Positions 35,108 to 63,300 are shown, numbered from the stretch's first letter. The stretch is DNA of 64,000 nt from Saccostrea echinata (GCF_033153115.1 NW_026889758.1:51460001-51524000); one strand, 5' to 3'. Numbers and translations are program-made. The notes: generated by a model from the sequence alone, not told the origin.

Positions 35108-35327
35108 AGTAGTAAGGGGTATAGTCTGGGGTCTATATGGGGTCACTGACGTCATGGGTCCGTCTGGGGTCACCCATCCCATGAAAGCCGTCTGAGGTCG
35201 ATGACGTCACGACCCATCCCATAAAACCGTCTGGGGTCACCCATCTGATAAAACCGTTTGGGGTCACCCATCCCACAAAGCCGTTTGGGGTCACCCTTCC
35301 CATCAAACAGCCGTCTGGGGTCACCCC
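35108..35327 (+). repeat. Left TIR with internal ~27-bp subrepeats
   Basis: AGTAGTAAGGGGTATAGTCTGGGGTC...; repeated CCGTCTGGGGTCACCCATCCC. Confidence 0.95.
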
Positions 35328-35739
35328 TCCGTTTTTCCCACGATCAAATTCTTGGTTTTTCCACTAGGGGATTGTCTCAGACACACCCTATAAATTCCTC
35401 ATGTTTATTATATAAACTCCAAGTTTCATTTAGATTTTTATTCTGCAAAGAGGAAACACTTTAATTTATACAAAGACAGTACTTGTATTAGTAAGTATAC
35501 TTTGCTTAATTCTTGTTACCCAACATGCAGTTTCTTTTCTTTCTTGTTACCCAAATAATTTCCCCTTTTCAAGAATTACACTTTCATTTTTTTTTTAAAT
35601 ATTTTATTAGCATGATTTTTAATATTTTATTAATTCTTATAAATATAAGAACAAAGGAATATTAATGAGAACCTTCAATAGACCTACATTTAACAAACAA
35701 AGGCTTCATAATAGTTAACTCAAATAAAACCTAACTTTT

Positions 35740-36040
35740 TAAACATTTGAAATTATTTTAAACATTTCAAATAATCCTGCATATAATTAACAATCATTGA
35801 AGTTTGTATTGAGTCCACTCTAACTGAATCACTTACTTTCTTAAACATTTGAAATTATTTTAAACATTACAAATAATCCTGCATATAATTAACAATCATT
35901 GAAGTTTGTAATAATTAAGTTCAGTCTAACTGAAACAACTACTTTTTTAAACATTTGCAATTATTTTAAACATTTCAAATAATCCTGCATATAATTAACA
36001 ATCATTGAAGTTTGTAACAAGTCCACTCTCACTGAATCAA
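35740..36040. repeat. Three tandem ~103-bp repeats overlapping a gene 3' end
   Basis: AAACATTT..AATTATTTTAAACATT.CAAATAATCCTGCATATAATTAACAATCATTGAAGTTTGTA occurs three times. Confidence 0.9.
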
Positions 36041-36459
36041 TGAGTTCAGAAAGGGCGCTTAACTCCTCCTTAAGAGGATACTGCCTCGACGTTTGCGAAG
36101 ATGCGGGGGTCCCTGTCCCTGATGGGACTGCTGGTAGCACTGGTGTATTTCTAGCTGTCGGTGTTAGGGTATGGTCAGGAGTCGGAAGGTTAAGTATCGA
36201 GTTAAATTCTGTTGGTGTAGATGACAGGTTAAGGGACGATGCGGGGCTGGATGGAACACATATAGACGAAGACGGGCTATATCCCAACGCAAACTCTGAT
36301 TTGATTGGTGGTGTAGGACATGGGTTATATCCATACGCAAAGTCGGGTGCCTGGGGGTCGAGCTCAGCTTTAATTGGTGGTGGTGAGGGACAAGGTGGGC
36401 TATAGCCTATCGCAAACGTTCTTCTCTCTAGCGCTTCATATTTAGCAGGATTATCCTTC
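35961..36459 (-). CDS. Terminal exon of a Polinton Pro/Ser-rich protein of unknown function
   Basis: Open frame from the acceptor TTATTACAG: KDNPAKYEALERRTFAIGYSPPCPSPPPIKAE...FAYGYNPCPTPPIKSEFALGYSP...DYLKCLK*. The upstream exon was not located. Confidence 0.55.
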
Positions 36460-37334
36460 CTGTAATAATGAACATATTTAAAATGAAAAAATTTGTGAAT
36501 AGATGTAAAATTAGAAATATCTGGTCACATTAATCATTTTTGTCTGTTATATTTAAAAAACACTTCGTACAGAAAAATAAATATGTGTTGAAATATTGTA
36601 TTATAATGACCACACAATATTCGTGCATCTATCGTTATGCGCAATAAAGATACCCTTATGTTGACCACATTTCATACTAATGAATATTATTGATAATTTA
36701 AGTCGTATATTCAACCTGAACGGGGTACACATCATAACCGTATTTGGAAAGGTCTAAAAGTCGCATGTACAGATCGATAAAATTTGACCTAAACGCAAAA
36801 AGTGTGTCAAAGTTTATTCAGATCACAAGAGTCGTATCTAATACGTTGTAATATTTTAAAAAAAAAAAACAGCCCGTATTAAAAAAAGTAACTACATGTT
36901 CAAAAATGTCATATCACACAATGTGGGTTTTTGTGAACAAAAGTCATGAATTATAAAACTGTCGATCGTGCGTTGAAGTCTGTATATATCCAATTCATTT
37001 AATCTATATTTTATTAATATAAATCTAAATTTGCGCCTTTCACGTTATTTTAACCCAAACCATCCTTCAATATCTGTCATCGTGTGTGTGTGTATAAGGG
37101 TTTCCACGAGAGAGAGAGAGAGAGAGAGAGAGTATTACGATGACTCTCAGAGTGCATCATGCACTTACAAATGTATTTCATTTCAACAGAATTAATAATC
37201 TTAGTTTATATAGCATATATATGAATTAATTTTGAAAAAAGGGTAGATCAGAAGATCACGTGACCAAAATTTTCGCGCGGATATGTTATCACGCGCTCAT
37301 GCTGAAAAAAAAGATGGAGGAGAGGTCTGTGAGG

Positions 37335-39565
37335 ATGATGTGTGTTATAGGCCTATCTATTGCTTTATGCCCCGTAATTTTGGGTGCCGTATTAAGGAGT
37401 CCCACCAGAATCGTTAAGACATGTTACTTGCCTTGTATTAATATCACGGTGCAAGCGTCAGAAGTTCGAGACGTTTTTGTGACGTCATGTAGACTGAACT
37501 CTGTATTCGTAATTGGAAATATGTCTTCGGTACATATTCACCCACTGGACCAAAGTCACAAAGAATGTGGTAAGTCTTATATATTTCAATTTCAATTAAG
37601 TTATCGTACACAGATCCCATTATCCCCCCCCCTTTCATTGTTGGACAAGTGAAGTAGTACTGAACTTCAGTTCAGTACTGAAGTAATTAAATTTGCATCA
37701 AATCTGGGTTTTTTTCATATTGGTATTGAGGTGATCACTAGTGAATTAATTTTTTATCGACCATTAAAAAGTACACATAACTGCAAAAAAAAAAAGACGC
37801 TTTATCTCCGAAGGTTTACGGAAAGTGCTGCGCGTTTAAATAAAGATCGGGTTCGACATAATATGAATTCGAAAATCAGAGGCATTCCGAATGTTTCATG
37901 AATTCTATTTTTTTAAATTTCAGAGCCAAAACAAATCACAGAAACGGGGAAGAACGGTGAGCATTTGAATATACTAATTAAGAAAGATTGTGTGTGTGTA
38001 AACATATATAAAGTCTTATAAATATTGCTGTAAAAGGATCTATAGGTAAGGGTGACATTATCAGACCTCGGGTGGCATTAAGTCCATACAGTCTTGAACA
38101 TGTTGAAAATTTGAAGTAGAAAGGTTTTATGATACCCTTTTTCCCCTCAGAACCAGTTGAGAAAACGACCAGGCAAGTGGTTTCAAGAACGACAAGAACA
38201 ACGATAGCTATCACTGAGACCCGAACACCTCATCCCACTAAAGAAGAAGGTAATGGAGGTAAGATGTATACCATAAGTATATAACACATGATGTTTGTGT
38301 ATAGTCAATGCGTGGCAAGTATACTTTCGTGAACATGGTCAAGGTATAAAAGAACAAAATAATGTTCATAATGTCTTTTTGTTTTATTTTTCAGAGCCAG
38401 TGGAGAAAACAACACAGCCTAGGATTACAAGAAGGACAAGAACAATGATAGCTAGCCCCATGATCCGAACACCTCATCCCACTAAAGAAGAAGGTAATGG
38501 AGGTAAGATGTATACCATAAGTATATAACACATGATGTTTGTGTATAGTCAATGCGTGGCAAGTATACTTTCGTGAACATGGTCGAGGTATAAAAAAAAA
38601 AGGAAAGAAAATGTTCATAATGACTTTTTGTTTTATTTTTCAGAGCCAGTGGAGAAAACAACACAGCCTAGGATTACAAGAACGACAAGAACAATGATAG
38701 CGAGCACTGAGACCCAAACACAAGAGAGAAATTACAAAGATCTTGCTGAGGGTATATCTGGTTCATCCATCTATATTATTGTCATTTGTTCACTTAATTT
38801 GTTATTTCTCTTTTTATTTAAAACAAAGAAAATAAAAAATATGTATTTAGATAAATGTAAGAAAAAAAGAAAACATGTGAAAAGAAAAAAAAAGTTGAGT
38901 ACATGGTTGTTTAGAAAAAATCAGATAGTTAAGGAAAACAAATTACCATCAAAATATGAGCTTCAGGAAATTATAAGATCTTGTACAAAGTCAGATGATG
39001 AATTTGAAGATGATGACTTTTATGATGAAGTAAACTTTGATTCAAGATTGTACGTTAATAAAAAATAGATTTTGTAAAGTGATTTTTTTTTTTAAAAACA
39101 CATGTAAAGTATATAATGTTTCATAAATTATGTGAAGAAATCTTGTTTTTGAGAGCTACATTTTTTTTTGTAGATTATCTGATATGGGCTATCATTATTA
39201 CGATTTGCTGTAAAGTGTCTTTGGTCATCATAATTCGACTTTCAATTAAAATTCGACGTACAAGAATGCATGACATACCGATGCGATTGACAGAGATTGA
39301 CTCCCCTGCTCCTACCACACCACCACCAGCTGCTCCTTCCGCACCACCACCTTCTGCACCAGAGAACCCTCCAGAGAACCAACCCTCTGCACCAAACCAA
39401 ACCCCTCAATTAGGTCATACAGACACACCTAGGGGTGCAGAAGGAATTGAAATGTCATATTTTACACCCCAAACTGCCAAACCCTTGATTCAATCCAAAA
39501 CATCATCCCCCATTGCACTCCGAACCAGGTCGCACACACGTAAAAAGTTGAATTTTCATGTGTAA
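37335..39565 (+). CDS. Six-exon type I membrane protein with mucin-like stalk (exons 37335-37569, 37924-37956, 38151-38249/58, 38395-38493/502, 38644-38751, 39174-39565); alternative read-through end at 39068
   Basis: Signal-peptide-like MMCVIGLSIALCPVILG; all five introns are GT-AG with pyrimidine tracts and all are phase 1; Thr/Pro-rich repeated exons; TM YLIWAIIITICCKVSLVIII; Pro-rich tail. Confidence 0.8.
38151..38720 (+). repeat. Tandem ~245-bp exon+intron duplication (about 2.3 units)
   Basis: EPVEKTT... exons start at 38151, 38395 and 38644 with near-identical introns. Confidence 0.92.
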
Positions 39566-51498: not shown

Positions 51499-52482
51499 TT
51501 ATTCAGAATCACTTTCGATTGTCTGTGAGTCTTGTAAGTCACCGACATTACATTCCATGGACACATCTTCTGTCGGATTATATCCAAAAGGAGTACACTC
51601 TGGACAACTTAACATTCCAAGCTGATTTTGATGGGACTCGCTGAACACACACAGTTCTGTATCATTTAATTCGGGAACATATTCTCGTACTTCTTCAACG
51701 GCTTGTAGTAATTTAGTCAACTTGTATTTGTTCAAAGACACACCTTTTCTGGTTGGTACCGGTTCTAGGGCATCGTCTGGCTTCCAAAAGTGCCTAATGT
51801 CTACTGAGGTATACCCAGGGTTAACAGAGACGAAGACACCCCCTCCAATATGCCATTTCATCTCTACATCAGCTTCATTGTTTTGCAGATAGTTGGCGAT
51901 ATCTGGTAGAAGAGACTCAAATTTCAGCCATCGGCACAACGGGAATGTCACCCCCTTCTTTGTTGCAAAATAACGACCGTTAGATTCTGTAAAGTGACGG
52001 ATGTGAATATTGATATCCCCCTTGAATGGCACGGCTGTAAGGAAAAGATCGTTGAAGTCATCCAGACTGATTCTACACCGCTCTTCTTGTGAGTTTTGTT
52101 GTTCTGAAGGGTTACTTTTCGGCTCAGACTTAATAATTCGTTTTTCTGACATGTTCACAACCAGCGACCTGGCCATTGCTAACTTCTTTTCGTACTCGGA
52201 CATGTTATTATCACCGACTGAGAGAAGCTTGGATAAGTCTGTTTGGTTAGCTTTCATAAGTGCCATTCGAAGACCTGTAAAACCTTTTGGTCCTCTGCGT
52301 AGAATGATACTTATTAGCTTTCTGTTACGATCATAACTGGTCTTTTCGGCTTCAATCTGCTGTCTCATCTCGTCGGTTATAATGTTGGAGGCAAAGAGAT
52401 GCCCAGCAACGGAAGAGGTCATCATTTTTTTCACCAGAGTCGTGTAGTTTGCTTTGATTATATCCTGATGTTTCTGTTCCAT
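51499..52482 (-). CDS. CARD + tandem PC4-like ssDNA-binding domains + C-terminal Cys motif
   Basis: Residues 1-88 fit a death-fold CARD pattern (LF...IIT.EM.Q.IEAE.T..DRNRKL+.II.RRGP..F..L..AL). Two PC4 signatures: FKG.INIHIRHF...ATKKGVTF...W and VDIRHFW...PTRKGVSL. C-terminal C...HQNQ.G...CPEC. Confidence 0.85.
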   Translation of the reverse strand: MEQKHQDIIKANYTTLVKKMMTSSVAGHLFASNIITDEMRQQIEAEKTSYDRNRKLISIILRRGPKGFTGLRMALMKANQTDLSKLLSVGDNNMSEYEKKLAMARSLVVNMSEKRIIKSEPKSNPSEQQNSQEERCRISLDDFNDLFLTAVPFKGDINIHIRHFTESNGRYFATKKGVTFPLCRWLKFESLLPDIANYLQNNEADVEMKWHIGGGVFVSVNPGYTSVDIRHFWKPDDALEPVPTRKGVSLNKYKLTKLLQAVEEVREYVPELNDTELCVFSESHQNQLGMLSCPECTPFGYNPTEDVSMECNVGDLQDSQTIESDSE

Positions 52483-52623
52483 CTTTGCTGAAGAGAGGGT
52501 GATGCTTCTTTTACGATCAATTCAGATATGTTGGAAATTTTTACAATAAACCCGTTTTTATAACAAAATTGTCACGTGCTTGATTGACCTTAGACTTTTC
52601 ATAAAAAGGAGTGTTTTTTCTTT

Positions 52624-53187
52624 TTAAAAAAAGTGACTGCAGACAATTTTGACTGCAGACGGAATTGATCTCAGACGTAATTGACTGTAGACATTTTTCT
52701 TGGAGATAATAGTAAATCCTGACTGTATACTGAATTGACGGTAGACATTTTGATAGTATTTAGTTTTTCTTTCACTTTTTTTTTTTTTAATGTAGTGAAG
52801 AGTTTCTGATATTATATTCATAATATCTTCCACAGTATCCGCCATTTCTCTCAACACATAAAGCGGATTTCCATGACGTACTTTTTCTTTTCTATGAATA
52901 AGCCAGTGAAGACTGTAATCCATTTTTTCTGACAGTTCCCTAAACTGGTCCACTAGATCTTTAAGTTTTCTCCAGTCTGAAGCGCCCACTTTAATATCAT
53001 CTCTTTTCATAATTTTGACTTGTGTTTTAAGAGCAAGTGCGCTTCTAACGCATTTCATCAGACGTGTAATGTGCATCAGCAGCTCTTCTTCTTTTCGATT
53101 GGTTAAAACGTTAAAAATGTTTTTACACATTCTGTTCCATTGCAATTTTGTTCTTCTTAATTGTCTTTCCATTGTCAGACCTTCCAT
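52624..53187 (-). CDS. Basic helical protein of unknown function
   Basis: Intact ORF; likely ATG at 53187 with a TATA-like TATATAAA ~45 nt upstream. Confidence 0.65.
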   Translation of the reverse strand: MEGLTMERQLRRTKLQWNRMCKNIFNVLTNRKEEELLMHITRLMKCVRSALALKTQVKIMKRDDIKVGASDWRKLKDLVDQFRELSEKMDYSLHWLIHRKEKVRHGNPLYVLREMADTVEDIMNIISETLHYIKKKKSERKTKYYQNVYRQFSIQSGFTIISKKNVYSQLRLRSIPSAVKIVCSHFF

Positions 53188-53267
53188 TTTCAGCAAAAGG
53201 TATGATGTCTTACGCAAAAAACACCTCAGTTTATATACACGACAGTCCTCGTCACTCCCTTTTTTTT

Positions 53268-53474
53268 TTAATTACACTTGACCTCAGACATTTTGATGTT
53301 ATTTAGTTTTTGAAGTAGGATAGGTGACAACAATATCTCGACATGATCAATTCTTCTTTTAAAATGAGCCCTGTCAACAGCATATTGCATCCATATTCCT
53401 TTCCGTTCTTCATAAGGAATTGCAATTATATGTACACGATCATTAAATTGAATATTCCTTTGCACTGGTTTCAT
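53268..53474 (-). CDS. PPP1R15/GADD34-ICP34.5-DP71L family PP1 regulatory subunit (68 aa)
   Basis: RVxF-type RNIQF, then V.II, then RKGIWMQYAVDRAHFKRRI...E..LSPIL, matching the RxGxW...A.DR.RF.RRI...E..L.P.L family signature. Confidence 0.9.
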   Translation of the reverse strand: MKPVQRNIQFNDRVHIIAIPYEERKGIWMQYAVDRAHFKRRIDHVEILLSPILLQKLNNIKMSEVKCN

Positions 53475-53579
53475 TTTGTTTCACTAAAGGAGTGTCTGTT
53501 CACAGAAAGAGATCGATCTAAAATACTAATGTTCACTCTTCCTTCAATTTATTTATACAAACTAATCATGAATATGAGT

Positions 53580-54065
53580 CTATGCACTAATTTGTTGTTC
53601 ACTGGGCGTCCAATCACCCCAATACTCTTCGTGTCGCCAAGTTCCATCAGGCCACAAGAAAGTCATTGTACCGTTGCAGTAACTTTCAATTTGAGATTCG
53701 TAATGAGCGTCTTTCATGATGCTGTACGGTACACGGTCGGCCATGATAGTTTTCAGGACTTCTGAGAACTCCATTGGTTCCTCCAAAGACACATCTTCAA
53801 GATCACATGCGCGCAAGCAAAAGGTTGCCATCTTCAATGGATCGAGTTTTGATTCCTTGGCCAGTTTCACCAAACAATGTTTCTCGTGTACAAATTTCGT
53901 TCTCAAAGAATATTGCTTTTTACAAAAGTCACAGGACCGGCAATCTCCATTATCTGCAATATACTTATCAATCCGTTTTTTGACAATGGCTCCCCACTTC
54001 AAAAAGTTTCTAAAGTATATCTCATCATTGCATAGAATATCCTCACTGCTCCAATAATCATCCAT
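53580..54065 (-). CDS. Cys/His-containing protein of unknown function (161 aa)
   Basis: Intact ORF with C-x2-C-x2-C...H-x2-H-C; TATATAA ~45 nt upstream, next to the right TIR. Confidence 0.7.
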   Translation of the reverse strand: MDDYWSSEDILCNDEIYFRNFLKWGAIVKKRIDKYIADNGDCRSCDFCKKQYSLRTKFVHEKHCLVKLAKESKLDPLKMATFCLRACDLEDVSLEEPMEFSEVLKTIMADRVPYSIMKDAHYESQIESYCNGTMTFLWPDGTWRHEEYWGDWTPSEQQISA

Positions 54066-54156
54066 TTTGCTGTTTTATAAAGAATTATTATATATTTTTG
54101 TCTCTTCTCCTTATATAGATCGTCAGACGGCTTTGGGAGTGGTTGGTGATTATTTA

Positions 54157-54374
54157 TGTGACCCTAGACAGTTTTTGAGGGGATGGGTGACCCAAAACGG
54201 TTTGATGGGATGGGGGTGACCCCAAACGCTTTAATGGAATGTGTGACCTCAGACGGTTTTATGGGATGGGCCATGACGTCATTGACCCCAGACGGCTTGA
54301 TGGGATGGGTGACCCCAGACGGACCAATGACGTCATTGACCCCAAATAGACCCCAGACTATACCCCTTACTACT
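54157..54374 (-). repeat. Right TIR
   Basis: Imperfect reverse complement of 35108-35327. Confidence 0.95.
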
Positions 54375-58463: not shown

Positions 58464-58682
58464 TTAATTCTTCATTCCTGCTGTAATTGAATAATGTAAT
58501 TGTTCAAACAATGGTATTAAGTGCCATTCAACCTCTTTTGGGTTGTCTTTTCCCCATTTTCTATACATGACTGTATTACGCAAACAAAGATTATCACAAA
58601 CATGACTATAATATTTCACTGCTAAATTACAGGTGACACTTCTGACCATTCTGTCTTTTCTACCGCTATTTTCCTCTGCAGT

Positions 58683-58960
58683 AGTAGTTGTATTAATTTC
58701 GTAAGTTCTAAAGCTTGTAAATGATAGTTTGGAGATACATATACAGAACAAAGGGTAATTGTTTTTTCAAGAGAAAGGCGTACAGCTACTGCCTGAAGAT
58801 TTGTTTTAAAAACTATTTGGCTGTGAATGTATTTATTGTTAATTGCTGGTGAAGTATCGCCAGATGCTCTCTCAGTTTGAGCATAATAGTTATACATACT
58901 ATAGTTTTTAATTGACCTTAAAACCTCGGCAATTCCATTGTATTAACGTAGGATGATTCA

Positions 58961-59006
<46 letters not shown>

Positions 59007-59054
59007 CATTTTGTCTGTAGTCCGTCTGTAAACTTTTCACATTTTCGACTTCTG

Positions 59055-59095
<41 letters not shown>

Positions 59096-59098
59096 AGT

Positions 59099-59133
<35 letters not shown>

Positions 59134-60037
59134 TAAGGGCCACACCTTCTTCCAAGGGGAGATAATTAAGAATTCGTGAAAAATTAATGGCATCATTAAA
59201 AAAATCTTCTCAAGAACCACTGTGCTTGAAAACATGAAACTTATGTGGAAGCATCCTCAGGTAGTGTAGATTCAAGTTTGTTCAAATCATGACCCCCGGG
59301 GGTTGGGTGGGGCCACAATGGGCGATCAAAGTTTTACATAGGAATATATAGGAAAAATCTTCAAAAATCTTCTTCTCAAGAACAACAAAGCCATAATTGG
59401 TCATATTTATATGGTAGCATCCTCAGGTAGTGTAGATTCATGTTTGTTCAACTCATGACCCCCGGGGTCCTGTGGGGCCACAATGGGCGATCAAAGTTTT
59501 ACATAGGAATATATAGGAAAAATCTTTAAAAATCTTCTTCTCAAGAACAACAAAGCCATAATTGGTCATATTTACATGGAAACATCCTCAGATAGTATAG
59601 ATTCAAATTTGTTCAAATCATGACCCCCAGGGGTAGGATGGGGCCACAATGGGCGATCAAAGTTTGACATAGGAATATATAGGAAAAATCTTTAAAAATC
59701 TTCTTCTCAAGAACAACAAAGCCATAATTGGTCATATTATATGGTAGCATCCTCAGATAGTTTAGATTCATGTTTGTTCAACTCATGACCCTGTGGGTCG
59801 GGTGGGGCCACAATGGGCGATCAAAGTTTTACATAGGAATATATAGGGAAAATCGTTAAAAATCTTCTCAAGAACAGCAAAGCCCTGATTGGTCATATTT
59901 AAATGGAAGCATCCTCAGATAATGTAGATTCAAATTTGTTCTATTCATGATACCCCCCCCCCCCACCACCACTTTTATATTTAAACTTTTCAACCTTTCA
60001 AGACTGAAGTGATTTCTGCTTTTTCGTAGCCATAGTG

Positions 60038-60073
<36 letters not shown>

Positions 60074-60391
60074 TTTATTATGAGAAATAGGTGATATCCT
60101 CCCTTTATTTTTATTGGGTGATATACTTCGGACTTGTGAGGAAGAATGACAAGTGTAAAGTCCATCTCCTCGAAGACTTCAAACTTATTGTGGAGGGTGA
60201 CGGCATCTCGTGCCCCTTTGGGTAGCCGATCACTCGACTGTGTCTGGTTGTTTTTTGAGGGAGATTTATTACGTCTCCCAGTCGATGTTGATTTTCCTGT
60301 AGCTGGTAGCTCTGATGGAGCCGTAGCTACAGTTTTTGATGCAGCCGCAACTGCAGGGCCTGCAGAAGCAGGTTTTGGAGTAGGTTCCTGC
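58683..60391 (-). mobile_element. Inverted 5' segment of the LINE (ORF1 end 60073-60391; ORF2 endonuclease start 58683-58961)
   Basis: MNHPTLIQWNCRG...LQAVAVRLSLEKTITLCSVYVSP (APE endonuclease N-half); ORF1 tail with NKFEVF. Confidence 0.8.
58963..60072 (-). mobile_element. Complete HINE-like element with ~5 copies of a ~166-bp repeat (Cg170-like)
   Basis: TTTTAGCTCACCTGAGCCGAAGGCTCAAGTGAGC ... GCTCAGGTGAGCGATGTGGCCCATGGGCCTCTTGTT; CATCCTCAG at 163-166-bp spacing. Confidence 0.88.
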
Positions 60392-63300
60392 TCCATTTAT
60401 GATTGTGGGTGACTTTAAAGCCCACAATCCACTATGGGGTAGCGACAAAATAACTGATAAAGGGAAAAAAAATGAAGATGCAATATCACATCATAATCTG
60501 TGTATACTTAATGACGGCTCTAGCACTTATTTGCATCCGGGTAATGGTTCGTATTCCTCAATAGATATTACTTTAATAGATCCTTCTTTACTCTTAGATT
60601 TTAATTGGTCAGTACACGACGATTTATGCGGGAGTGATGATTTCCCAATTATCATTAAAATAAATAATCCTTCACAAAATAGTTCTATTCAAAATTGGAA
60701 ACTAAACAAGGCTGATTGGACGCAATTTGAAAAATATGCTTACAAAATATTTCGGCTGAAAAGTTTCAGAACCATCCTGATTCTATACAAAAATTTACTG
60801 AACCATTATTGCATACAGCAAATAAATGCATACCTAAAACCTCGGCAAATTCCACTAGAATCAAAAAACCATGGTATACAGAAGAATGTAATGATGCTAT
60901 TAAAGCTCGAAAAAAAGCAGAAAGACTATTTAATAGATTACCAACATCAACAAATTTAAGCAATTTCCGCATATTGAGAGCAAAAGCTCGCAGAACTATA
61001 AACTTTAGTAAACGAAAATCTTGGAAAAAGTTCGTTTCCAACCTTAATTCACACACTCCTATCAATAAAGTTTGGAACGCAATAAAAAAAAATTAAAGGG
61101 AAAGGTCCTGAAAAATATCAGCATCTTAATGTTGGAATTAAAATTATTACGGATAAAAAGGAAATATCTGATGAAATAGCAAATACAATTTCTAAAATTC
61201 CTCCACAAACAATATAAGTTCTAAATTTAGTAAATATAAAAATTCACAAGAAAAGGTAATGTTTGATTTTACATCTGAAAACTCATATGCATCCATTTAC
61301 TTTAGATGAATTACAAAAGTCTTTAGATAAATCTCATGATACAGCGGTAGGACTGGACCAGATCCATTATCAACTTATTAAACACCTTCCTTTAAACAGT
61401 AAAGAATGTCTTCTGCAAATTTTTAATAAGATCTGGAAGCGAGGCCATTTTCCACCTTCCTGGACCCAAGCTACAGTTATTCCTATCCCTAAACCGGGAA
61501 AGCACCACGTAGATCCTAACAATTACCGTCCAATTGCTTTAACAAGCTGCTTATGTAAAACCCTGGAAAGGATGATAAATGAACGCTTAATATGGTTTCT
61601 TGAAACTTATAACATTTTAACTAATATATAATGTGGTTTTAGAAAAAAAACGAATACTACTGACCAGTAAGTAAGACTGGAAACTTATATTCGAGATGCC
61701 TTTATTAAAAAAGAGCATGTTGTATCTGTATTTTTTGATTTAGAAAAAGCATATGATACTACATGGAGACATGACATTTTGAAAGATCTTTATAAAATGG
61801 GCCTTAAAGGACACTTACCCAATTTTATCAAGAATTTTTTGAATGATAGACATTTTAAAGTACGCTTGGGGTCTACATATTCGGAAAGTTTTGATCAGGA
61901 AATGGGTGTACCACAAGGTAGTATTTTATCAGTCACTTTATTCAGTATAAAAATTAACAGCTTAGCAGAAGTACTTAAAAATGATATGCATGGAAGTTTA
62001 TACGTCGATGATTTTGTTCTTTGTTATAAGTCCAAAAATACGAATTATATTGAGCGAAAATTACAGTTTTGTCTAAACAGAATTCAAAATTGGGCTGATG
62101 AAAATGGATTTAAGTTTTCGAAAAGTAACACCGCTTGCGTGCATTTTTGCACCAAACGGAAAACCCATGATGAACCACATTTGCGGCTACAATGGAAATC
62201 CTATAAAAGTAGTTAAAGAGATTAAGTTTTTAGGCATTATCTTTGATAGTAAACTCTCTTTTGTATCACATATTAAAATGCACAAAGGCTTTAGATGTTC
62301 TCAAAGTTATTTCAAGTACAAGATGGGGGGCAGATAAAAATACTCTTTTAAAACTTTATCGCTCTTTAGTCAGATCTAAGTTAGACTATGGATGTACTGT
62401 GTATGGCTCTGCAAGAACTTCATACTTAAAAGCTCTTGATGCAATCCATCATCTAGGCCTTCGACTGTGTTTAGGAGCTTTTCGAACTTCTCCTATAGAT
62501 ACTTTATATGTCGAAGCAAACGAGCCACCTCTCGACTTAAGAAGAATTAAACTTACCTTACAATATATTCTGAAACTAAAAGCAAATATTGATAATCCTG
62601 CGTATGATTGTGTTTTTCGTCCGCAACACGAAGGCTTGTACCTTAAAAGTAAAAAATGTATAAAACCCATTGGTCTAAGATCGAGAAAACATATCAGGGA
62701 TTCTGACCTACCTTTGGACATAATTCAACCCACAAATTTCTCTAAAATACCACCATGGAAATTAATTAAACCAAAAGTAGATACATCCTTAACATAATTT
62801 AAGAAATCAGAAACAAATTCTCTTATTTTTAAACAGAAATTAGCTGAAATGAAACATTTTAAGAATTCTACAGTTGAGATTTATACAGATGGTTCAAAGG
62901 ACAAAAATGGAGTAGCAGCGGCTGCAGTGATTAAGAATAATGTTTTTTTTTCTCGGCTTCCAAACGAAGCGACAATTTTTACAGCAGAGGCAAAGGCCAT
63001 ACAACTTGCATTTGAATATATTAAATCTTCTAATGACAAAACATTTACAATATTTTCGGACTCGCTCTCTTGCTTAAAATCTATACAAAATATGAATATT
63101 GATCATCCATACATTTTGGATATATTAATTCAATATCATTTTACTCAACAAGGTAAAACAGTTGACTTTTGTTGCATTCCAAGTCATATTGGCATACCTG
63201 GAAACCTAAGGCTGATAGTGCTGCAAAAAGGGCACTTCACCATGATATAACTTTATTCAAAATACCTTACACTGATTTGAAATATCTTGTTAAACTTTAC
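60392..63300 (+). pseudogene. I-group (I/Nimb-like) LINE ORF2: endonuclease C-half, RT, RNase H; degraded and 3' truncated
   Basis: GDF.AH, SIDIT, NYRPIALTS, GVPQGSILS, YVDD, IYTDGSK, FSDS, IPSHIGI; several stops and frameshifts. Confidence 0.93.

Follow-up and report, generated by a model that had tools for sequence, protein, structure and literature searches.

A CARD joined to tandem PC4 domains in a Polinton of the oyster Saccostrea echinata

A Polinton element in the genome of the oyster Saccostrea echinata carries an intronless, intact gene for a 327-residue protein that consists of an N-terminal CARD, a tandem PC4 module, a Cys-His-Cys-Cys site and an acidic tail. The gene lies on the minus strand at 51499..52482 of the window, by which we mean the whole 64,000-nucleotide stretch of DNA that we analysed. 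Comparison of genomic copies establishes that the CARD is under purifying selection and is constrained as much as the DNA-binding module. By analogy with known viral proteins, we propose that the product may be a replication-associated ssDNA-binding protein with a CARD decoy against caspase-2-type death signalling. We rank this reading first and give it slightly less than an even chance.

The CARD-PC4 protein and its element

Translation of 51499..52482(-) proceeds without an internal stop. The CARD occupies residues 1–88 (52219..52482, on the minus strand like all parts of this gene), where Pfam reports PF00619 over residues 7–88 (E 5.7e-13; 49.1 bits against a cut-off of 23.9). An AlphaFold2 model built from a 43-row alignment (mean pLDDT 77) places six main helices in residues 1–86 (block pLDDT 79–96) and an extra helix at 96–106 downstream of this bundle, in a conserved helical segment past the CARD (residues 92–110; 52153..52209). 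When compared with the Apaf-1 CARD (1cy5), the modelled N-terminus gave an rmsd of 0.8 Å and a target TM of 0.91 in Foldseek, and a Z of 16.8 in a second structure comparison. With a six-helix death fold close to Apaf-1 and a Pfam score above the cut-off, this region belongs to the death-fold superfamily as a CARD. The sequence-only reading had proposed as much and had named fold modelling of the N-terminus as a check, with the lack of a six-helix death fold as a finding that would refute it. The domain is basic (15 K/R versus 8 D/E), and a Pfam scan of the 327-residue protein returned no caspase or other effector domain. The linker that follows (residues 111–134; 52081..52152) was modelled with low confidence and is probably flexible.

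The two PC4 repeats that had been read from the sequence were also recovered, both by Pfam (PF02229 in two stretches, E 2.7e-13, 49.6 bits, cut-off 25) and in the model, which contains two beta-beta-beta-alpha repeats across residues 135–270. Repeat 1 (residues 135–203; 51874..52080) keeps an aromatic loop, the IR motif and TKKG, and repeat 2 (residues 206–272; 51667..51867) keeps D-I-R-x-x-W with R230 and W233 as well as T-R/K-K-G. Among 43 relatives, R230 and W233 are each conserved in 42 and G247 in all 43; we take these positions to be residues of the DNA-contact motif by their role in human PC4. The module thus combines a PC4 fold with a conserved contact motif. The two repeats of one chain are unequal (23% identity). 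Using VIA-align, residues 132–274 of the model could be aligned with Drosophila Pur-alpha (3k44) over 126 residues (Z 11.0, rmsd 3.1). Since both repeats together superpose on Pur-alpha repeats I–II, the module is likely an intramolecular version of the PC4 dimer. Based on the PC4/Pur fold and the conserved Arg, Trp and Lys residues, it is predicted to bind ssDNA.

The region downstream (residues 273–302; 51577..51666) contains C278, H284, C293 and C296, a predicted zinc site. C278, H284, C293 and the CxxC set are kept in 19 of 21 CARD-bearing relatives and in 18–20 of 22 CARD-less ones (CxxC in 18 of 22). Searches of solved structures listed no match for this Cys-His-Cys-Cys tail, which does not show that its fold is new. 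The sequence-only reading had noted a Cys/His tail with the motif LSCPE and had pointed out that this motif also fits LxCxE. The motif is indeed present. An LxCxE that binds Rb needs a free cysteine, and here C293 is the first cysteine of the conserved CxxC and a putative metal ligand, so the LxCxE match is probably incidental. LxCxE is kept in 16 of 21 CARD-bearing relatives, as opposed to only 2 of the 22 CARD-less relatives in which CxxC persists in 18, and we rejected Rb binding on this ground. One of the 21 CARD-bearing rows, P0076, starts past the CARD and is counted there by presumption. The remaining residues (303–327; 51502..51576) form an acidic tail of low model confidence with 8 D/E, no K/R and a terminal S-D-S-E. 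This acidic stretch lies downstream of LxCxE but evolves almost neutrally (omega 0.65). Such a tail would fit the loose "Oncoid" definition given in section 3.2 of Starrett et al. (PMC8502044). A separate locus in this genome (L111, G000:C7:6444650-6446500) combines zf-PARP and PC4 domains and is probably a host gene, like the scallop zf-PARP-PC4 genes mentioned in passages of PMC9223095.

The Polinton setting that had been assumed for this gene is borne out by the window. The element spans 35108..54374 (19,267 bp, in line with the 15–20 kb of Polintons), ends in AGTAGT and is flanked on both sides by the 6-bp target-site duplication GAGGAA. Its left terminal inverted repeat (35108..35324, plus strand, about 217 bp) matches the right arm (54155..54374, minus strand) at 152 of 168 aligned bases. 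A protein-primed family B polymerase is encoded at 41416..45833(+) (DNA_pol_B_2, E 4.4e-27). In the window copy its frame is broken once relative to the N-terminal ORF of a relative, and a second split that is common to both copies is probably an intron. A retroviral-type integrase with a chromodomain lies directly downstream of the CARD-PC4 gene (50140..51294(-); rve E 3.4e-13, Chromo E 2.3e-10). Three further genes on the minus strand scored below the Pfam cut-offs: an A32/FtsK-type packaging ATPase that is frameshifted in the window copy (46594..47286, E 0.003), an adenain-like cysteine protease, also assigned by its position in the element (47384..47845, E 0.014), and a double jelly-roll major capsid protein (47842..49158, DJR-like E 0.068). 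We assign them to a virion module because their order and sequences are conserved in relatives.

Only 152 of 168 bases agree between the two terminal repeats of the element. Its right 4.7 kb, by contrast, are 99% identical to another copy, to which its core further left is 92–95% identical (L002/L123-L125), and its target duplication is free of mismatches. These features suggest a recombinant mosaic whose ends were unequal when it integrated. The left part of the element (37236–39565, plus strand) contains fragments that have no Pfam match and look like a spliced mucin-like membrane protein; they comprise Thr-rich repeat units along with a pair of small hydrophobic ORFs. Outside the element, at 58600–63250, broken ORFs that resemble endonuclease, reverse transcriptase and RNase H when judged by eye lie beside satellite-like repeats of about 165 bp; these pieces look like a non-LTR retrotransposon.

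Upstream of the gene, a TATAAA box 80 nt before the start codon and a CACGTG box that lies another 16 nt away from the gene (52557..52578(-)) likely constitute its own promoter, as judged from the sequence. In raw counts made without a shuffle control, 27 of 30 copies have a TATA box 40–130 nt upstream, and 11 of 30 have an AATAAA no more than 60 nt from the stop. As to RNA reads, three runs of one study contained 6–11% of the sampled words. X1 and X2 contigs at 80% likeness spanned all 30 bins including the spacers, a pattern to which DNA carry-over may contribute. In the poly(A) runs X4 (90 reads) and X5 (93 reads), the reads were mostly divergent and fell chiefly on the polymerase, with a depth below 1 on the CARD-PC4 gene.

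Genomic copies, selection and origin of the fusion

A CARD-PC4 search of the oyster's own genome gave at least 125 matches among 122 scored candidates. Polinton context was found for all 44 near-full frames: a scored capsid gene lies within 30 kb of 37 frames, an adjacent integrase or integrase piece accompanies six more, and the last one (L126) runs into a Polinton terminal repeat. In the other direction, the fusion is found near 47 of 51 capsid genes of the same Polinton family. These counts bear on the idea of a domesticated gene that serves the host as a sensor of DNA or LPS and merely sits in Polintons. Published passages do present such a gene as a host immune gene that responds to LPS and Vibrio. 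However, this origin is made very improbable by Polinton context in 44 of 44 near-full copies and by the decay of copies after insertion, as seen in a nearest copy that is 7 nt away from ours and shows no synonymous difference in the five regions listed. L126 was rejected as a domesticated copy since it extends into the terminal repeat. L031, the sole apparent solo candidate, was rejected as well because it sits at the end of another Polinton family.

The family around L031 (with L100-L101; G000:C57:6082000-6102300) is distant from that of the window. Its CARD-PC4x2 gene is 32% identical, has no zinc tail and sits at the end opposite to the integrase. The polymerase-like ORF of this family starts with C2H2 zinc fingers and showed no match to the window's polymerase. 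In another subfamily (L026:3014-3505(-), also L126/L127), a 163-residue ORF upstream of the CARD-PC4 gene has one weak PC4 match (E 1.3e-4, under the cut-off), preceded by a hydrophobic stretch that probably spans a membrane. Of 60 CARD-PC4 copies, whether full or partial, 53 lie on four contigs (G000 C5, C33, C36 and C6), which suggests Polinton-dense regions. An 8.8-kb inverted duplication with 99.5% identity (L118-L120; G000:C63:549000-567000) bears a broken PC4x2 gene in each arm and is either a real palindrome or an assembly artefact.

To quantify selection, we collected 34 loci with 31 unbroken or nearly unbroken frames, of which 29 were unique, and excluded copies with internal stops. 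By pairwise dN/dS (saturated pairs dropped), the CARD scored 0.11, the two PC4 repeats 0.17 and 0.12, the zinc region 0.09, the linker 0.55 and the integrase 0.10. A codon model fitted by maximum likelihood to 28 natural copies, one with a stop removed, returned omega values of 0.17 for the CARD, 0.19 and 0.16 for the PC4 repeats, 0.085 for the zinc region, 0.59 for the linker, 0.65 for the tail and 0.12 for the integrase; the extra helix past the CARD also scored 0.17. In the codon model of these 28 copies, there is no sign that the CARD changes faster than the PC4 module.

Selection on the CARD that equals that on replication-type modules would also suit a CARD that serves for self-association only, in cooperative ssDNA binding or in replication compartments, with no role in host signalling. 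CARDs polymerise, and several CARD filament structures are among the structural matches. Surface charges such as E38, E46, K47, R54 and K77 are invariant in 29 of 29 copies. In addition, the modelled tandem PC4 would already be complete as a pseudo-dimer, with no dimer interface of its own left to use. On the other hand, the PC4x2 gene of most Polinton families in the oyster genome has no CARD, so that the module works without one, and the CARD is closest in likeness to host apoptotic CARDs. On balance, we consider a pure self-association role rather unlikely.

Annotated proteins with the full fusion exist in Saccostrea, Crassostrea/Magallana and Ostrea, with the closest named ones in Saccostrea oysters. 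A profile search of 1.84 billion representatives added fusion proteins of divergent sequence from the mussel Mytilus, the pearl oyster Pinctada and the abalone Haliotis. Among eight metagenome contigs, the gene order of a whole Polinton is visible on two long ones (L052 and L053), and the integrase lies next to the gene on three shorter ones. No relative was found among IMG/VR contigs or GenBank phages. Matches in the ESM Atlas all stayed below 0.9 and can be taken as leads only. The fusion is thus widespread and its CARD is selected, the opposite of a fusion unique to this copy with no purifying selection, which the sequence-only reading had named as fatal to its proposal.

That reading had also asked whether homologues in other Polintons lack the CARD. 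CARD-less tandem-PC4 genes of about 165–270 residues are common in the oyster genome, and 16 of 17 fetched CARD-less PC4x2 loci have Polinton core genes nearby, so that other Polinton families do contain the CARD-less form. Together with the likeness to the adintovirus protein MOSUB (see below), this argues that the DNA-binding module predates the CARD. On a CARD tree of 77 rows and only 88 columns, 26 of 27 PC4-fused CARDs form one branch (89/82) with two further rows. P0184 falls outside this main branch in a loose position and has a long branch on the PC4 tree. The PC4 tree (43 rows) unites 20 of 21 CARD-labelled modules with three CARD-less ones (93/89). Since neither branch is starred, one main ancient capture of a CARD onto an older CARD-less PC4 gene, followed by losses, is allowed by the sequences but not proven.

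Inside the fusion clade, P0078-P0080 are PC4x2 relatives without a CARD. In P0079 and P0080, a short Cys/His-rich N-terminus without a Pfam match takes its place. In P0139, a gene model from Pinctada imbricata, a Polinton-type CARD is joined to a sequence homologous to another Polinton ORF (E 4e-14 against L100), which may represent either a second fusion partner or a join made by gene prediction. Taken together, P0139 and the CARD-less P0078-P0080 suggest that tight coupling of the CARD to DNA binding may not be required.

Possible roles of the CARD

Several lines of comparison point to CARDs of the caspase-2 type as the nearest host relatives. The best-scoring host CARD in the profile search belongs to a scallop caspase-2-like protein (86.6 bits), 13 CARD-caspases are among the 82 of 150 matches scanned with Pfam, and the best database matches with a single CARD are caspase prodomains. 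Among 40 stretches fetched from the oyster's own genome, a CARD-only gene (L060) reached 60.6 bits and no other non-Polinton CARD exceeded 32.8, in a ranking that does not put host caspase CARDs, which are split by an intron, on an equal footing with the others. L060 (1498-1773; G000:C29:2742897) is a host ORF of 91 codons that is 76–97% conserved in seven database proteins, and its homologues are annotated as caspase-2-like or CRADD-like. Its layout resembles that of vertebrate CARD-only regulators. The possibility that L060 is exon 1 of a caspase-2 gene found no support, as a stop follows right after codon 91 and no caspase domain match lies nearby. By score, the CARD donor was of the caspase-2 type; the CARD tree places no particular donor. 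The caspase-2/CRADD-like pattern that had been seen in the sequence therefore holds. The suggested link to RLR-MAVS immunity fared less well: in profile searches of the PDB, Apaf-1 (E 4e-8) and RAIDD (E 7e-8) lead, MDA5 (0.007) and BCL10 (0.01) trail, and MAVS is absent among the 60 listed of 72 matches. Since the closest relatives are not RIG-I, MDA5 or MAVS, we downgraded mimicry of this pathway.

What the fusion could accomplish for the element may be pictured as follows. Protein-primed replication displaces single strands, and these are the likely targets that the tandem PC4 module would bind in the nucleus, where we expect the protein to be located. The captured caspase-2-type CARD would act there as a decoy and, by analogy with iridovirus CARD proteins, blunt caspase-2-type death signalling of the host in a cell with an active element. 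Fusion to the PC4 module would put this decoy at replication intermediates, a possible starting point of DNA-damage-type PIDD-RAIDD-caspase-2 signalling. The protein shares with viral CARD decoys a host-derived CARD, the absence of a catalytic domain and a virus-like element as carrier.

We rank the decoy first for three reasons. The abstract of PMC4457926 describes the grouper iridovirus CARD (GIV-CARD) as an early, anti-apoptotic protein that moves into the nucleus; adintoviruses carry Bcl2 and IAP homologues (section 3.2 of PMC8502044); and oysters are described, in parts of PMC7836458 and PMC5550854, as having expanded caspase-2 homologues and as lacking a CARD-bearing Apaf-1. The same two sources report PIDD and RAIDD homologues from other bivalves. 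Against the decoy, we note that the CARD does not change faster than PC4, where a host-pathogen interface might be expected to diversify, and that the CARD is sometimes lost (P0078-P0080) and perhaps re-fused (P0139).

The same parts could also be wired to kill. In a replication-coupled death switch, clustering on abundant ssDNA would nucleate caspase-2 activation and late cell death, with release of particles or abortion of a co-infecting virus. The closest host CARDs are caspase-2-like prodomains, and a layout of sensor plus CARD parallels RIG-I-like and NLR receptors. Some adintoviruses, according to passages of PMC8502044, carry gasdermin homologues. However, GIV-CARD, the characterised viral CARD, is described as anti-apoptotic, and the genome tolerates at least 44 near-full copies, most of them with open frames and a TATA box. 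We therefore find the death switch quite improbable.

A second way of engaging host adaptors would be activation. Equine herpesvirus-2 E10 activates NF-kB, and a CARD of this kind could engage host CARD adaptors and switch on NF-kB in favour of cell survival or element transcription, with PC4 as a coactivator or ssDNA binder. E10 is the third BFVD match of our protein (E 7.6e-3). In contrast, BCL10 ranks low among PDB CARDs (E 0.01), and none of 30 copies has a kappa-B-like site within 200 nt upstream of the gene. CARD overexpression can also switch on reporters non-specifically.

The published title on an oyster protein points towards such an activator. The title of Wang et al. (2018, PMID 29751033) names CgCARDCP-1 of Crassostrea gigas with a CARD, LPS recognition and NF-kB activation. 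In a later paper (PMC9223095), passages cite CgCARDCP-1 as an oyster PC4, refer to PC4 as a transcriptional coactivator and treat the PC4 expansions of bivalves as host gene expansion. If CgCARDCP-1 belongs to the same family, its title speaks against the decoy and for an activator. We found the fusion family in C. gigas/angulata and O. edulis at 67–79% identity to P0001; no record named CARDCP was among the database matches listed. Since all near-full CARD+PC4 frames in the Saccostrea genome have Polinton context, CgCARDCP-1 is probably a Polinton gene of the CARD-PC4 type, an assignment by domain content and not by sequence, and this also limits its weight in favour of an activator. All considered, we judge the activator to be unlikely, though it is the likeliest of the alternatives to the decoy.

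In its boldest form, the proposal describes a mollusc Polinton ssDNA-sensing CARD adaptor, an innate-immune-style switch in which a CARD platform on replicating DNA would set cell fate, which has long been spread in bivalves and gastropods and which has already been assayed unknowingly as a host gene. We think that this whole picture is unlikely to hold. Animal Polintons are abundant in bivalve genomes, but what their accessory genes do has hardly been tested. That purifying selection maintains a host apoptosis domain in diverged Polinton lineages speaks for an active, virus-like engagement of the host's death or immune pathways by these elements, and CARD-PC4 provides a concrete protein with which such engagement can be tested. 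According to passages of PMC7836458, a "caspase-2" induced by Bonamia in Ostrea edulis is 77% identical to CgCARDCP-1. CgCARDCP-1, this flat-oyster protein and much of the reported bivalve PC4 expansion may be Polinton genes. If so, induction of such genes would report activation of the element and not host defence.

Comparison with known systems

Our search of the openly accessible literature returned no paper that ties a CARD-PC4 gene to Polintons, and a keyword search of virus papers found neither a CARD domain nor PC4 mentioned. As a heritable Polinton gene across molluscs, the fusion thus appears to be undescribed in the searchable literature. The architecture had been called unusual for a mobile element. 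This judgement stands for the fusion as such and less so for its parts, which are known separately as MOSUB-type PC4 genes, viral CARD modulators and a host-labelled oyster protein. By title and citation, CgCARDCP-1 is alike in being an oyster protein with a CARD and PC4; unlike our gene, it is described as a host immune gene, with no Polinton link in the citing passages.

With regard to host CARDs, the bivalve caspase-2-like prodomains and L060 are the highest-scoring relatives (profile match 99%), but the lead sequences are only about 23% identical, and the caspase-2 CARDs are split by an intron whereas the Polinton CARD is intronless. GIV-CARD, frog virus 3 vCARD and equine herpesvirus-2 E10, all of them structural matches in BFVD, are likewise virus-borne, host-derived CARDs without a catalytic domain. 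GIV-CARD is a 91-residue CARD-only protein of a large vertebrate DNA virus, whereas the Polinton CARD resides on an integrating 19-kb element; none of the iridovirus CARDs or E10 is described as fused to a DNA-binding module.

The PC4 half resembles PC4/Sub1 and the PC4-like protein of phage T5 in its PC4 fold with IR-x-x-W and K-K-G motifs, and its tandem repeats superpose on repeats I–II of Pur-alpha. PC4 itself is a single-domain homodimer, in contrast to the Polinton protein with two unequal repeats in one chain and a Cys-His-Cys-Cys site. The best viral structural match is MOSUB of adintoviruses (BFVD E 4.7e-5; Branchiostoma lancelet A0A5H3CIS2 and the Bos-associated insect adintovirus A0A5H3CT48). 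The MOSUB gene is mapped near a terminal repeat in Fig S2 of the supplement to Starrett et al. (PMC8502044), where the label occurs once and, as far as the searchable main text goes, nowhere else. At about 200 residues and with a PC4/Sub1-like fold, MOSUB has the size of the CARD-less form of our protein, and CARD-less tandem-PC4 genes of similar length occur in the oyster's other Polintons.
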